Positions 11,922 to 49,951 of a stretch of 64,000 nucleotides of DNA are shown here, one piece after another. The first letter of the stretch is position 1, and each line of letters opens with the position of its first letter. Origin of the DNA: an uncultured Bacilli bacterium (lineage in GTDB: Bacteria > Bacillota_I > Bacilli_A > RF39 > UBA660); the NCBI GenBank assembly GCA_944358775.1, contig CALVRU010000001.1, positions 3,888 through 67,887 of the forward strand, read 5' to 3'. Below the pieces are notes generated by a model. The model saw only the letters and a list, made by a program, of their open reading frames with translations, was not told the origin of the DNA and made no database searches. Position numbers and translations under genes: made by a program.

Positions 11922-13103
11922 TTATTGATAAAGTCGTCCATTTAACTGTATAGCATCAATAATAACATATCCAGAATCTCCCAATACTTGAATTCCCAAA
12001 TATCGATTTCCTGTTACATTTGTGATGTCTAACGTCATACTAACATATTTTCCATTCTCCGACGTAACTTGTTTAAAACCACTTGTATAATGAACCCACG
12101 CAGAGGTAGTAGAATTAACAGCCGCAGAAATAGTAGCCGAATTTTGCACGCCAATTCCAATATAGATAGATGCATAGTGAGTTAAATCCATATTTAAATT
12201 GCGCCACGCATCTTGTCTACTTCGACCAGGAAGATCAAAACGTAAAGTAGTACCATCAGACCATGAACGAAATGGACACTCACGAACATCATAATTACCT
12301 TTAACCCATGTTCCAATTCCAACTTGATTCACCCATAATATTTTTTTGCTCTCATAAAGCCATTTCGGTCGTACTGTCACTCCATAGTCAGGCATCGTGA
12401 ACGTTTTTTGTGAAGAAGATAACGTAGTTAAAACTTCCTTTGTTTCGGTATTTGTAACCGTTGCCCCATAGTAACTAAATCCACTATTCGGAGTATTCGT
12501 AAGGGTGATCACTTCACCTGGCTTCGCAGATGCAACCGTCGTGGTTTTTCCACCAGTAACACTATCAACAAAAATTGGCAATGTCGATGGATATGCCTCA
12601 TCGATGCGAATTTGATTCGGTGAAAGAATCAACTCTTTATCTACCAAACCACCTTGTACTCCAATCGTCAGATTTCCACTCTTTCCACTACGATTTTGAA
12701 TTACCAAAGTAACGGTTACGTTTCCATTCGGATCTATATTTCCATACGGAAGAGAACCCTCTTCTTGATAATACACAGTAATATCGATAGAATTCGGATC
12801 CAAATAATATAACTGCCATGAACTTGTAAGTAAGTTGTTCGCTTGAATCGAAATCGGAAATTCAGAAATCTCCTGTTCCGTAAAAGAAAGTGTCATTTCA
12901 TTTTCATACTGCTCGTTTAACACGTAGTCAAAACGAACGGCCGCTAAACTAAGTACATTTTCTTTTTCAGTAGAAATCGTATAAAAAGCGTAGCTATAAC
13001 TGCCAATTAAAAGAAGTACCCCAAAAAGAAGAGTTACGATGATCACAGATAATCGTACTCTTTTCTTTAAGAAATGAAATACTTTTTTCGCTTTCTCCTT
13101 CAT
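11922..13103 (-). CDS. hypothetical secreted/surface protein (393 aa) with SipW-cognate-like signal peptide (IGSYSYAFYTISTEKE); expression apparently phase-variable
   Basis: Basic N-terminus plus hydrophobic helix plus SYAFY motif, the same signal type as the 49-52 kb cluster. Many NxS/T sites. Inserted between rpoC and rpsL with its own promoter. Confidence 0.65.
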   Translation of the reverse strand: MKEKAKKVFHFLKKRVRLSVIIVTLLFGVLLLIGSYSYAFYTISTEKENVLSLAAVRFDYVLNEQYENEMTLSFTEQEISEFPISIQANNLLTSSWQLYYLDPNSIDITVYYQEEGSLPYGNIDPNGNVTVTLVIQNRSGKSGNLTIGVQGGLVDKELILSPNQIRIDEAYPSTLPIFVDSVTGGKTTTVASAKPGEVITLTNTPNSGFSYYGATVTNTETKEVLTTLSSSQKTFTMPDYGVTVRPKWLYESKKILWVNQVGIGTWVKGNYDVRECPFRSWSDGTTLRFDLPGRSRQDAWRNLNMDLTHYASIYIGIGVQNSATISAAVNSTTSAWVHYTSGFKQVTSENGKYVSMTLDITNVTGNRYLGIQVLGDSGYVIIDAIQLNGRLYQ

Positions 13104-45910: not shown

Positions 45911-46717
45911 TTATGCATGAAAGGCATTGCTTAATGCAACAAACTCTTCTAAAGTTAACTGTTCTGCTCGAACCGTTAAATCTTTGTGAACTTTTTTTAA
46001 TACAGATTCAATCACATTTAAATCATATTCCTTCAAATTATTCCGCAAATTCTTTCGTTTAAAACGAAAACTATCTCGAACCAATTGAAAGAAAAAAGGC
46101 AAATCCAACACTTCGAGACGATCTTTCTTAGCCGTTAAACGAATCACAACACTATCGACATGGGGTTGTGGAACAAAATTTCCGCGACCTACTAAAAATA
46201 ACTTTTCCATTTCAAAATAATAATTCAAAAAAACAGTTAAAGACCCATAATCGCGACTTCCAACCTTAGCGGTAAAACGTTCTCCAACTTCTTTTTGAAC
46301 CATGACAACTACTTTCTCTACCGGAATTTGTTCATCGATCAATTTCGTAATAATCGGAGTTGTAATATAATAAGGAAGATTCGCAACAACATATAAATGC
46401 TGGAAAGAATACTTTTTTAAATCTTCTAAAACATTTCTTTTTAAAAAATCATCATAAATAACATCGACATTCGAATAATCCTTCAATTGCTTATCGAGTA
46501 CCAACTCTAAACTATCATCTATTTCATAACAAAGCACTTGATCCGCCCTTTGACAAAGTTCCTTTGTTAAAGCCCCTGCTCCTGGACCTATCTCAATCAC
46601 CAAAGAATTCTTTTCAATTGTAGCAGCATCAGCAATTCGCGTAACAATAACTGCATTTTTTAAAAAATTTTGACCAAATTTCTTTTTAAAACGAAAGTTT
46701 TCTGTCATGTTTCTCAC
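45911..46717 (-). CDS. rsmA: 16S rRNA (adenine1518/1519-N6)-dimethyltransferase
   Basis: FGQNFL motif and NLPY motif. Confidence 0.9.
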   Translation of the reverse strand: MRNMTENFRFKKKFGQNFLKNAVIVTRIADAATIEKNSLVIEIGPGAGALTKELCQRADQVLCYEIDDSLELVLDKQLKDYSNVDVIYDDFLKRNVLEDLKKYSFQHLYVVANLPYYITTPIITKLIDEQIPVEKVVVMVQKEVGERFTAKVGSRDYGSLTVFLNYYFEMEKLFLVGRGNFVPQPHVDSVVIRLTAKKDRLEVLDLPFFFQLVRDSFRFKRKNLRNNLKEYDLNVIESVLKKVHKDLTVRAEQLTLEEFVALSNAFHA

Positions 46718-46744: not shown

Positions 46745-46782
46745 AAGAAAAAAGTAGAAGTTATTTTGCTTCTACTTTAACT
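46745..46782 (-). terminator. rho-independent terminator ending the SipW operon (overlaps last codons of the 166-aa gene)
   Basis: Minus-strand agtagaagcaaaataacttctact followed by tttttt. Confidence 0.6.
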
Positions 46783-47261
46783 GTTAATGTCTCGTCTTGT
46801 ACCTTTTTCTTTTTCCTCTTAACTCCGGCTAAAATCAAAAAGATATCTGCGACCGACAATCCATATAGCATAATCTTAAATGGTGCAATCATATCAGAAA
46901 AATAATTAAAGTTAATATCATATCCTAATCGAATCTTAGCAATCATAAAATCATCGGCAACCGCCCGATATCCACAAAAGATAATTAACACAAAAACCAT
47001 ACAAGAAACAAAGTTGAAAAAGACACTATCTTTCACCGCTTTTTGATTTAAAATCATATTGATTGCATACATTACAAATAAAATTGCAAATGGTAAAAAG
47101 ACACTAAATGCATCTAAAATATTCTTATCTAATCTCTGATACATAAAAACGACAATATAGAAAGTAAATCCAAAAGAAGCAAGTAAAAGCAATAATTTTA
47201 TATAATATAAAATTTTATTTAATATTTCAATCATTCTAACGAGCCCCCTTTGTTTCTTCAC
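46761..47261 (-). CDS. hypothetical 4-TM membrane protein (166 aa), last gene of the SipW operon
   Basis: ORF overlaps the upstream gene by 26 nt. Four hydrophobic helices. Confidence 0.6.
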   Translation of the reverse strand: MKKQRGLVRMIEILNKILYYIKLLLLLASFGFTFYIVVFMYQRLDKNILDAFSVFLPFAILFVMYAINMILNQKAVKDSVFFNFVSCMVFVLIIFCGYRAVADDFMIAKIRLGYDINFNYFSDMIAPFKIMLYGLSVADIFLILAGVKRKKKKVQDETLTVKVEAK

Positions 47262-47931
47262 TGAACCATTGTGCTAACTCATCCGTAATTGCAGCTACTT
47301 TCGTATAAGATGCCATTAGATCATAGTAACCATCTTTTACTTTATCCATTACCGTACTAGTGACAAGTGATGTATTAAAATAGTAACTACTATTATTAAG
47401 TAAATCTTTTTTCAAATAGTACGTATCCGATAAAATGCTATCTAAATAAAGTCGAAGATACGTTTGATTTCCTTTTAGATATGCTGAATTAAGTTGATTT
47501 TTTTCAGCCTTTGCAAACCAATCTAAATTTGTTACTACACATTTCGATACGACTTCTGTTTCAAAAGCTTCCCGTAAATTATAGATATCGACAATCGTCA
47601 ATTCGTTTTTATTCATAATTGCTTGCATCGCTTCATTATTTAATTCCTCATAACAAGCTTTTAATTTCTGATCCGCGGACATCACTTGAAAGGCAGTTAA
47701 ATCACCTTCGTATTTATTCGCGTCAATCTCTGGTAAGTTTTCTTTGATACTCGTTAAATAATTTTGAAATTTCTGCATCGTCGCATTGGTACTAGGGTCA
47801 TAAACAAAAGTCTTTCGAATTTCAGATGCATGGTAAAGATTGACGATAAGATAGAAAGATGAAAACGCAAAAATAAGTCCTAATAGTGAATAACTAATAA
47901 TCTTACAATACTGTTTTAAAAAATCAATCAT
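47236..47931 (-). CDS. hypothetical N-terminally anchored extracellular protein (231 aa), SipW operon (TapA-like accessory candidate)
   Basis: N-terminal TM LLGLIFAFSSFYLIVNLY, then a predicted helical ectodomain. Confidence 0.6.
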   Translation of the reverse strand: MIDFLKQYCKIISYSLLGLIFAFSSFYLIVNLYHASEIRKTFVYDPSTNATMQKFQNYLTSIKENLPEIDANKYEGDLTAFQVMSADQKLKACYEELNNEAMQAIMNKNELTIVDIYNLREAFETEVVSKCVVTNLDWFAKAEKNQLNSAYLKGNQTYLRLYLDSILSDTYYLKKDLLNNSSYYFNTSLVTSTVMDKVKDGYYDLMASYTKVAAITDELAQWFSEETKGAR

Positions 47932-47933
47932 AA

Positions 47934-48524
47934 TTATGCCTCCTTAGTAATGGGATCAATCGTCAACTGATAATGATAATGACGATTCATCCAATCGGTA
48001 TCTTCTTTTGCTTCACTAATCCAAATTTTCAATTCATAATCATAGGTTTGTCCACTTGCAATATTTTGTTCATCTAAGATATTCATTTTAATATCCGAAA
48101 GGTCACCGGTTTGGATCTTCTGATTATTTCGATATAGCGTATAGCGCAATTGATCACGCGTTAATTGGTTCTCAGGCGTACAGCCATCCGTTATAGATCC
48201 CACAGGTACATCTTCAATCAACAATTGAAAACGCCCGTCTTGAGTACCATTATTGGTCACCTTTAAGCGATATCCCGTAATTTTTTGACCATCTTCATCG
48301 CTCATTGGCACCATCTCATCAAAAACAGTAATACTTCCCGTGTCGACAACCGTCAACTGCACTGTAGCCACCTCTGTTTTAGTAGGTGTTTTGGAACGAT
48401 AATAAATTGAAAAAAACAAAAGTGCAAAAACCAAAACAAGTAGAATTATGACAAATAAAGTAAGAAATGGAAACTGCCTCTTTTTCTCACGATCATTTCT
48501 TTGTTCTTGTTCATTCATTTTCAT
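47934..48524 (-). CDS. secreted protein with SipW-cognate-like signal, paralog family member (about 197 aa)
   Basis: Shares family motifs (VPMSDEDGQ; YDYELKIWISE) with the 49-52 kb paralogs. The ORF-track start 48560 overlaps sipW; the internal MKMNEQ start is more plausible. Confidence 0.6.
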   Translation of the reverse strand: MKMNEQEQRNDREKKRQFPFLTLFVIILLVLVFALLFFSIYYRSKTPTKTEVATVQLTVVDTGSITVFDEMVPMSDEDGQKITGYRLKVTNNGTQDGRFQLLIEDVPVGSITDGCTPENQLTRDQLRYTLYRNNQKIQTGDLSDIKMNILDEQNIASGQTYDYELKIWISEAKEDTDWMNRHYHYQLTIDPITKEA

Positions 48525-48525
48525 A

Positions 48526-49140
48526 TTACGACTCCTTCTTCCGTTTTTTATTGATCTCACGATAAACTGTTTTACCTAACTTAATAAAATCATAAATGAT
48601 AACTCCTAAACTCGGAATAACAATTACTAAAATCCATCCGTATGATGTCGATAAAAATTGTTGTAAATAACCAAGTTTTGGAATTTTAAACATAACTTTT
48701 CCCATTAAATTATCTTCTGGTACTAACCAACTATCTTCGGTATTATTATTATCACCCTTTGTTCGGAAAAGATAGAATCCATTGCTATCTTGCGTTACCT
48801 CAACTACGCGGTGCGTAATCGTTGCACCATACGAAATCGGACTTTCCGAAATAAACGTAATAATATCACCTTTTTCCACCGAGTGACCGCTCACACGCCT
48901 AGTAACAACCGCATCATTAACATGAATATTTGGTTCCATACTATTACTAATAATCACATATGCACTGAAAAGTGGAGCAGTATAATCTCCTTTTTTCAAA
49001 TTTTGCTTTTGCTCAATATAGTACACAACCACTGTAATAATAATAATAACTAAGATCGTAAGAATAGCATACAAAAAAACAGAAGTAAGAAAATGAAAAA
49101 ACTTTTGTAGATTATGAAACCATGCATTCTTCTGCTTCAT
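48526..49140 (-). CDS. sipW: signal peptidase I, SipW type (ER/archaeal-type SPase I)
   Basis: 204 aa. N-terminal TM, then SNSMEPNIHVNDAVV (Ser nucleophile box). His-containing box and C-terminal TM typical of SipW/Sec11-type enzymes, not LepB type. Confidence 0.8.
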   Translation of the reverse strand: MKQKNAWFHNLQKFFHFLTSVFLYAILTILVIIIITVVVYYIEQKQNLKKGDYTAPLFSAYVIISNSMEPNIHVNDAVVTRRVSGHSVEKGDIITFISESPISYGATITHRVVEVTQDSNGFYLFRTKGDNNNTEDSWLVPEDNLMGKVMFKIPKLGYLQQFLSTSYGWILVIVIPSLGVIIYDFIKLGKTVYREINKKRKKES

Positions 49141-49165
49141 AAACGCACCCCTTTTTATTCTTTTG

Positions 49166-49846
49166 TTATTTTACTTGTGCCGCATACACATTAATCCGAA
49201 GCGAAAACTGCTTATTACTATAGTTCGTAGCATCTTCTTTGACCCACATCCGCAAACGGTACTGCTCTTGTACTTTTGTTCCTTTTGAAATCGTTCCTTG
49301 ATACAAAGTCTTACCTTTAGTATCTGCAAGTTTTGTATCTTCATACTCCCCATAAGTTTTAACAGGATCAGAAGAAATCGGAGTCTCTAATGTACCATCC
49401 ACTTTAGTTAAATAAATTTTCACTAATTGTTCTGATAACGTAGAATTGTTTTCTTTAAGTGCTACAATTTCATACTGTAGATTGACACTAGTATCCGCTA
49501 AAATTTGAAAATCAAAATAAGTATGACTAGAAAATAATGCTTTCCCCTCTTCATCCGAAATAGGTCTTGCATTTACGATATTAATTCCATTTCCTTGACC
49601 ATCAACATCCGAATAAGAAAATAAAATTTCACCACTCTTAATCGTATTAATCTGACTGTTATCCCCACTTGGATCGAGATCGGTATACTCTCTATAAAAA
49701 GCATAAGATAACGTAGAAACAGTCACCACTAAAATAATCAATAATAAAATTAACAATAAATTTTGACGAATATAACGTTTCTTTCTGTTTTCTTCTAGTT
49801 CTTGTTCTTCTTCAATAGAATTAAATTGTTCATTATTCTGTTCCAT
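49166..49846 (-). CDS. secreted protein with SipW-cognate signal (LSYAFYREYTD), paralog family member (start at MEQNNEQ)
   Basis: Shares ILFSYSD, RPISDEEGK and QYRLRMWVKE motifs with the tandem paralogs. RBS agaggtg lies before the internal ATG. Confidence 0.65.
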   Translation of the reverse strand: MEQNNEQFNSIEEEQELEENRKKRYIRQNLLLILLLIILVVTVSTLSYAFYREYTDLDPSGDNSQINTIKSGEILFSYSDVDGQGNGINIVNARPISDEEGKALFSSHTYFDFQILADTSVNLQYEIVALKENNSTLSEQLVKIYLTKVDGTLETPISSDPVKTYGEYEDTKLADTKGKTLYQGTISKGTKVQEQYRLRMWVKEDATNYSNKQFSLRINVYAAQVK

Positions 49847-49951
49847 AGACACACCTCTACTATAATTACATGATAACATAACTAAAAAAAAGAAACAATA
49901 AAAAGTCGACTAGAAAAAAGAATATTACGTAACTTGATATCCAAATTTAGA

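Follow-up and report, generated by a model that had tools for sequence, protein, structure and literature searches.

In a 64,000-nucleotide stretch of DNA from an uncultured Bacilli bacterium (assembly GCA_944358775.1, contig CALVRU010000001.1, positions 3,888-67,887; hereafter, the window), seven open reading frames (ORFs) on the minus strand separate a yabE-like gene from ksgA. They encode a signal peptidase of the archaeal or endoplasmic reticulum (ER) type, three paralogous proteins with predicted cleavable signals (A1, A2 and B), a divergent member of the same family (C), and two membrane proteins (D and E). In our reading, to which we assign a probability of about 0.58, the cluster encodes a donor-strand surface filament that depends on Sec and on the SipW-class peptidase. 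The gene content, the class of the peptidase, the paralogy, the conservation of the site and motifs, and the beta fold are the established part of this reading.

What we infer is the cleavage step, how the subunits polymerise, and the part that each of B, C, D and E would play, as follows. The separately transcribed A1 and A2, probably the major subunits, and the minor subunit B would be synthesised as precursors whose signal-anchor is unusually well conserved, and the dedicated Ser/His signal peptidase would cut after an invariant Ala ([ST]-[FY]-A↓x-F, the arrow marking the cut). The freed N-terminal stretch (FFTYSKQGETVNTITTGTL...) would then enter the beta-sandwich of the neighbouring subunit as a beta-strand, so that the subunits join non-covalently into a fibre with A as the shaft and B as the tip, adaptor or initiator. 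C, having the same predicted fold and an uncleavable signal-anchor, would act as the membrane base or nucleator, matching TapA, AbpB or TafF in function. D and E would be membrane accessories that serve as an assembly platform or else assist the peptidase as its partners. Large A-domain proteins with adhesin repeats may join the fibre as adhesive subunits.

The subunit family and the predicted cleavage site

The family to which A1 and A2 belong has no Pfam or NCBIfam model. None of the 902 word-indexed homologues carried a Pfam domain or a name, and a cluster look-up returned no names for family members either. In an exhaustive profile search the family comprised 4,420 representative clusters (50% identity) at E<=1e-3 and 1,823 at E<=1e-10. 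That B is paralogous to them is clear from hhalign (probability 99.8%). For the gene adjoining the peptidase, that is, in the B position, the best cross-locus match was again in the B position in 65 of 67 cases, while the other copies matched one another; by these matches, the B position is a distinct orthologous group.

Conservation, computed on an alignment of 185 A-family sequences, peaks at the N-terminus, with [ST]28-[FY]29-A30 (99%) and x31-F32 (94%) followed by N42 (97%), T46 (92%), G47 (93%), Y53 (95%), E55 (94%) and then A65-x-P67. As sites of type I signal peptidases have S or T at position -3 and A at position -1, cleavage is predicted after Ala30. The motif [ST][FY]A[FY][FY], which the earlier note on this sequence had ascribed to the secreted proteins of the operon, is indeed present in B (SYAFY), and also in A1 and A2 (SFAFF), but not in C (LFFSIYY).

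The relationship of C to the family is seen with the hidden Markov model (HMM) of A1 (E 6.4e-6 among the window ORFs) and with hhalign (72.8% over the N-terminal 64 columns). In the window, C has LFF where the cleavage motif is expected, and most of its 66 orthologues have S-x-[LM]-W-Y, with L or M at position -1. Due to this degenerate site with a bulky -1 residue, C is predicted to stay in the membrane, and is a probable membrane-anchored base or nucleator. Two loci (L015 and L070) contain a second C-like gene, in which the cleavable S/T-Y-A site is retained.

The AlphaFold2 model of A1 (predicted local distance difference test, pLDDT, 76.6) is all-beta from residue 40, and the segment directly after the cleavage site has low confidence (pLDDT ~56). 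Elsewhere in the same lineage of metagenome-assembled genomes (MAGs), the A domain heads proteins of 500-1,700 amino acids (aa) with Big_2, Flg_new or Cadherin-like repeats, an arrangement that suits a polymerisation module displaying adhesins.

A further ORF of the window, encoding 393 aa between rpoC and rpsL (11922-13103, minus strand), has the N-terminus …LLLIGSYSYAFYTIS…, with a hydrophobic helix and S-Y-A-F-Y as in B, and a Flg_new_2 (InlB B-repeat) domain (28.2 bits). It matched neither the A-family HMM nor, even at E<=10, TIGR04088, the model of SipW-dependent signals; located 35 kb from the cluster, it may be one more substrate of the cluster's peptidase. In another MAG (GCA_947632065.1; locus L089, 9001-15197), a 1,151-aa protein headed by an A domain is encoded two genes from genes of T2SSF (PilC-like) and Peptidase_A24 prepilin peptidase. 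Secretion of a bsa-operon protein of C. perfringens needs type IV pilus genes (PMC11580942). The closeness of the A-domain protein to genes of the type IV pilus type may be a coincidence.

The signal peptidase

The peptidase had been described in the earlier note as SipW-type, and its match to the archaeal/ER-type signal peptidase I model agrees with that (TIGR02228, 111.9 bits; cutoff 51.85). It is not an ordinary LepB-type enzyme, since the score with the bacterial LepB/SipS-type model (TIGR02227, 25.6 bits) is below the cutoff of 47 and the match covers residues 56-115 only. The score with the Bacillus SipW equivalog model (NF046067, 98.1 bits) is also below the cutoff, here 190. Judged by these models, the peptidase is of the SipW class, yet it is not a SipW orthologue. 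The motifs SxSM (Ser67), THR (His110) and GDNN (Asp130), whose catalytic roles we assume by analogy with SipW, are kept across the 67 orthologues, and membrane helices are found near both termini (residues 13-45 and 162-189).

Membrane proteins D and E

Neither D nor E matched any family in the HMM searches. D has 13 homologues, all unnamed, and E has no relatives of known function. The model of D (pLDDT 80.9) shows a helical bundle anchored at its N-terminus, and a fold search for its function yielded only generic helical bundles (rhodopsins, designed bundles, GldM, FliS). The orthologues of D share two invariant Cys residues and an invariant loop, T170-T187. These residues (170-187, window 47374-47424; TxYxKKDLLNNSSxYFNT) form the most conserved segment of D, yet they are the sole part of the ectodomain with pLDDT <50; the loop looks like a disordered partner-binding motif. 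The YYFNTS within it resembles the FFTYS that trails the cleavage site in A. Together, D and E may serve the fibre as an assembly platform or a chaperone, or may be accessory subunits of the peptidase.

Conservation in related genomes

A pattern scan with one genome per species yielded 224 relatives. The best 80 all come from MAGs of uncultured gut bacteria, which bear the labels Bacilli, "Tenericutes", Candidatus Onthousia (Bacilli incertae sedis in NCBI) or Clostridium sp. CAG:451, one of them a closed 1.52-Mb chromosome (OZ006970.1). The carriers are small genomes with about 30% GC, which would place them in the RFN20-type lineage (PMC7301438).

The genome-neighbourhood comparison proposed in the earlier note gave a uniform picture once the window proteins were mapped onto the related loci: in 45 of the 46 loci spanning tatD to ksgA, the order is yabE, one to seven A-family genes (mode 4), SipW, C, D, E, ksgA, yabG, veg. 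This recurrence of the module is far above chance. The base composition of the cluster is not atypical, and together with the same site in 45/46 related genomes this rules out a recent mobile insertion; the cluster is thus an old, lineage-wide feature. A, present in one to seven copies, has its own ribosome-binding sites and terminators, while a single fixed B lies beside the peptidase gene, which fits the genetics of major subunit, minor subunit and anchor.

Some loci depart from this layout in their A-family genes. In the 1.52-Mb assembly (L001, 9539-13734), transposase genes of the ISL3 and IS110 families and two unknown genes lie within the A-family array, and in another assembly of this species-level locus (L002) these genes are absent; hence the array can accept insertions of mobile elements. 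In L005, L007, L033, L048 and L081, additional A-family genes lie outside the main locus and have no SipW gene close by; such copies occur especially in the rabbit-gut 'Lapin' bins, which are the nearest to the window.

Relation to TasA and other fibre or pilus families

A remote kinship with the TasA superfamily is plausible from profile comparison. Aligned to a TasA alignment (36 sequences, Bacillaceae only), the A profile (185 sequences) gave an hhalign probability of 62% (E 7.6e-5, 59 columns), and the alignment pairs the h-region, SFA↓FF with TWA↓AF, NTITTGTL with NxFAAGTL, and LxNAxP with LSNLKP. Signal peptides are as conserved in the TasA family as in the A family, and thus the invariant A helix would reflect pairing with a cognate signal peptidase rather than a retained pilin helix.

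Several observations weigh against the filament, or against its kinship with TasA. Once the signal peptides are removed, the hhalign probability of A versus TasA drops to 1.1% (30 columns). The SipW-cognate signal expected in the earlier note was not detected by TIGR04088, as A1 and B remained unmatched even at E<=10, with the TasA control reaching 38 bits (cutoff 19). The TasA/camelysin models PF12389 and NF046066 matched none of A1, A2, B and C, and TIGR04089 and TIGR04090 matched neither A1 nor B. Among 99 family members there were only sub-threshold matches, four to PF12389, six to NF046066 and six to TIGR04088 (best E 0.07), mixed with other weak matches that probably stem from the hydrophobic helix. 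In addition, D and E have no informative relatives, and the carriers are all uncultured. The A family is, by these searches, outside all described TasA, BsaA or SipW-substrate family models; the view of the earlier note, that nothing in the substrates recognisably resembles TasA or camelysin, therefore holds at the level of family models (PF12389, TIGR04088, TIGR04089, TIGR04090).

A search with the A-family profile against all PDB sequences retrieved nothing relevant. Foldseek of A against PDB yielded weak matches (E>=1.8e-3), the top ones being the pilins FimG/FimF (probability 0.99, TM 0.26/0.42).

Three other kinds of fibre were considered and rejected. A BsaA-like isopeptide lock is unlikely because the candidate Lys alternates with Arg: N42 (97%) and E55 (94%) are kept, but no Lys reaches 80%, and at K122, 139 of the 185 sequences have K and 38 have R. 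For a type IV pilin, there is neither a class III site of the G↓F..E type nor an A24 prepilin peptidase in the cluster, the matches to Pilin_N being weak, on the hydrophobic helix, and limited to 7 of 99 members (E>=0.039). For a sortase-assembled pilus, there is no LPXTG (A1 and A2 end in ...NVNAKDAAA, B in ...YAAQVK) and no sortase family match in the cluster.

Alternative explanations

D, E and possibly C could instead belong to a signal peptidase complex as its accessory subunits, like those of the eukaryotic complex (SPC) or archaeal DUF5305/TafG. SipW-C-D-E is invariant and translationally coupled, with junctions of 1-2 nucleotides (nt). The peptidase itself is of the ER/archaeal type, and accessory proteins have been proposed for archaeal Tafi/AbpX loci, e.g. 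DUF5305/TafG (PMC12337348; bioRxiv 10.64898/2026.01.04.697558). The invariant, poorly modelled loop of D also looks suited for binding a partner. However, C, D and E have no match to DUF5305 or to SPC-subunit families, and C is paralogous to the substrates rather than to any peptidase subunit. SipW of B. subtilis is not known to need such partners, and on this balance we regard the complex as doubtful.

Alternatively, A and B could be abundant surface or secreted proteins that do not polymerise, such as a variable antigen or an adhesin-anchoring domain. The peptidase would then only aid efficient maturation, and the multiple A copies would represent antigenic or phage-receptor diversification. 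The copy number of one to seven agrees with this, as do the divergence of the mature part of the paralogues behind a fixed N-terminus and the many giant surface proteins headed by the A domain that are scattered in the genome; moreover, the fold matches are generic beta-sandwiches. On the other hand, it is hard to explain for monomeric antigens why B and the membrane-anchored C are locked in the peptidase operon. The 92-97% conservation of N42, T46, G47, Y53 and E55 is more in keeping with a donor strand than with a flexible start of the mature protein, and the best single structural match is a fibre subunit. Hence we consider non-polymerising proteins unlikely.

Finally, a spore-associated structure (coat layer or appendage) instead of a vegetative fibre is very improbable: TasA was first described as spore-associated, its database homologues include the name 'spore coat-associated protein N', and the neighbours include yabG (Peptidase_U57), veg, spoVT-like, spoVG and yabP/yabQ-type genes, but this neighbourhood is an ordinary conserved yab housekeeping block, so that the position says little on function, and a scan covering sigma-70-type sites only identified no sporulation-specific promoter.

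Comparison with known systems

Loci combining signal peptidase I and donor-strand subunits are already documented for TasA/TapA (PMC10151520) and BsaA (PMC11580942), with archaeal examples in AbpA (PMC9245690), Tafi (PMC11821415, PMC12337348) and AbpX (bioRxiv 10.64898/2026.01.04.697558). The filament proposed here shares with tapA-sipW-tasA of B. subtilis (PDB 8aur) an archaeal/ER-type peptidase encoded beside its own secreted substrates, a highly conserved substrate signal peptide ending in x-[FWY]-A↓[AF]-F, and an N-x-[FI]-x-x-G-T-L stretch after the cleavage site. Unlike in that system, the subunits fail PF12389, NF046066 and TIGR04088, the peptidase falls short of the cutoff of the SipW equivalog model, the major subunit has one to seven copies accompanied by a fixed minor subunit, and in place of a TapA homologue there are the membrane-anchored paralogue C and the novel membrane proteins D and E.

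In sipW-bsaA-bsaB-bsaC of C. perfringens, similarly to our cluster, a SipW gene is grouped with several remote TasA-like paralogues; the BsaA polymer is reported to be anchored in the membrane, not in peptidoglycan, and heteropolymers of the paralogues have been proposed (PMC11580942). The differences are the absence, in our cluster, of a TIGR04090 match and of a von Willebrand A-domain protein, and the incomplete N-E-K triad (K in 75% and R in 21% at the candidate Lys).

The archaeal Tafi, AbpA and AbpX pili likewise have a major and a minor pilin, a signal peptidase I, here also of the archaeal type, a membrane anchor and accessory membrane proteins (PMC12337348, PMC9245690, bioRxiv 10.64898/2026.01.04.697558). 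In contrast to these, our cluster is bacterial, with Sec-type signals, no DUF5305 match and no sequence match to any solved member, and neither D nor E is related to the accessory proteins described for them. The chaperone-usher pilins FimG/FimF, the best Foldseek matches, share with the proposed filament the idea of an N-terminal donor strand; however, the matches are weak (E ~2e-3), and these pilins belong to a Gram-negative machinery that requires a chaperone and an usher, neither of which is present in our cluster. The likeness probably goes no further than a shared beta-sandwich.

The kind of locus, with signal peptidase I, donor-strand subunits, anchors and accessory membrane proteins, is thus already known. 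New are the large subunit family beyond current models, the paralogue turned membrane anchor, the two novel invariant membrane proteins, the presence at one housekeeping site across an uncultured gut lineage, and the A domain on giant adhesins. A wider proposal, which we offer tentatively as a possibility, is that this is a hitherto unrecognised, lineage-wide pilus system of uncultured small-genome gut Bacilli (RFN20-like; Ca. Onthousia, CAG:451). Its unannotated subunits, which make up at least 4,400 clusters at 50% identity, would be a new deep branch of the TasA superfamily or convergent, the peptidase would work with D, E and the pseudo-subunit C, and the A domain would be a plug-in for loading giant adhesins.

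No member of these small-genome gut Bacilli has been brought into culture. If the filament exists, this conserved surface-fibre locus, probably highly expressed, would be the main candidate for an adhesion or biofilm organelle of the lineage, whether for attachment to hosts, food particles or other microbes, and the fibre would also offer a target for enrichment, imaging or antibodies. Defining the subunit family would annotate thousands of "hypothetical" proteins, giant adhesins included. The invariant SipW-C-D-E set is a bacterial system in which to probe accessory partners of archaeal/ER-type signal peptidases and the anchoring of TasA-like fibres.

Organization of the locus

The features of the locus are listed in Table 1. 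The five co-oriented genes of the earlier note were found at the positions given there, except the start of E, for which 47234 is likelier than 47261 from the alignment of orthologues and the ribosome-binding site. Their extent (46761-49879) is too narrow for the cluster, which runs 1.7 kb further upstream, adding A1 and A2. The flanking genes were correctly named as yabE and ksgA, and the peptidase and paralogous secreted proteins do form one tight operon inside the conserved metG-tatD-yabE / ksgA-yabG-veg synteny; in Bacillus subtilis, rnmV sits between yabE and ksgA.

Table 1. Genes and terminators between the yabE-like gene and ksgA (window coordinates; arrows mark predicted cleavage)
Feature	Position	Strand	Evidence and remarks
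yabE-like gene	51699-52286	-	Pfam 3D domain
A1, major-subunit candidate, 240 aa	50863-51585	-	ORF; own AAGGAGG ribosome-binding site; predicted cleavage SFA↓FF after Ala30
Intrinsic terminator 3' of A1	50830-50857	-	Scan; fold -12.4 kcal/mol, z -2.6
A2, tandem A1 paralogue, 240 aa	49992-50714	-	ORF; own AAGGAGG ribosome-binding site
AT-rich terminator-like hairpin and U-run 3' of A2	49952-49988	-	Sequence; fold -11.5 kcal/mol, z -2.9
B, conserved minor subunit (predicted), 226 aa	49166-49846	-	ATG with ribosome-binding site; ORF reaches 49879; predicted cleavage SYA↓FY
SipW-class (archaeal/ER-type) signal peptidase I, 204 aa	48526-49140	-	TIGR02228; orthologue motifs
C, divergent A-family member, 196 aa, N-terminal membrane helix	47934-48524	-	A1 HMM; hhalign
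D, N-terminal membrane anchor and extracellular helical bundle, 231 aa	47236-47931	-	Predicted model
E, small membrane protein, ~four hydrophobic segments, 157 aa	46761-47234	-	Hydropathy; ATG with ribosome-binding site
Intrinsic terminator closing the operon, upstream of ksgA	46751-46778	-	Scan; fold -10.5 kcal/mol, z -3.6
ksgA	45911-46717	-	TIGR00755, 255 bits

The genes form three transcription units, A1, A2 and B-SipW-C-D-E. In the last of these, each gene is preceded by a Shine-Dalgarno sequence, and the packing is as tight as had been described, with spacers of 25 nt from the B stop to the SipW ATG, 1 nt between SipW and C, 2 nt between C and D, and 1 nt between D and E. The intrinsic terminator already noted at its end was recovered by the scan. 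The hairpin and U-run standing between A2 and this operon escaped the consensus scan, G-C pairs being scarce in the stem.

The A1 and A2 proteins are 94% identical (14 amino-acid differences). At the DNA level, a central region of ~180 bp (window 51070-51270 and 50200-50400, respectively) is 100% identical, whereas the identity is 85-97% at the ends of the genes and ~50% in the flanks, which suggests a recent gene conversion of the tandem copies.

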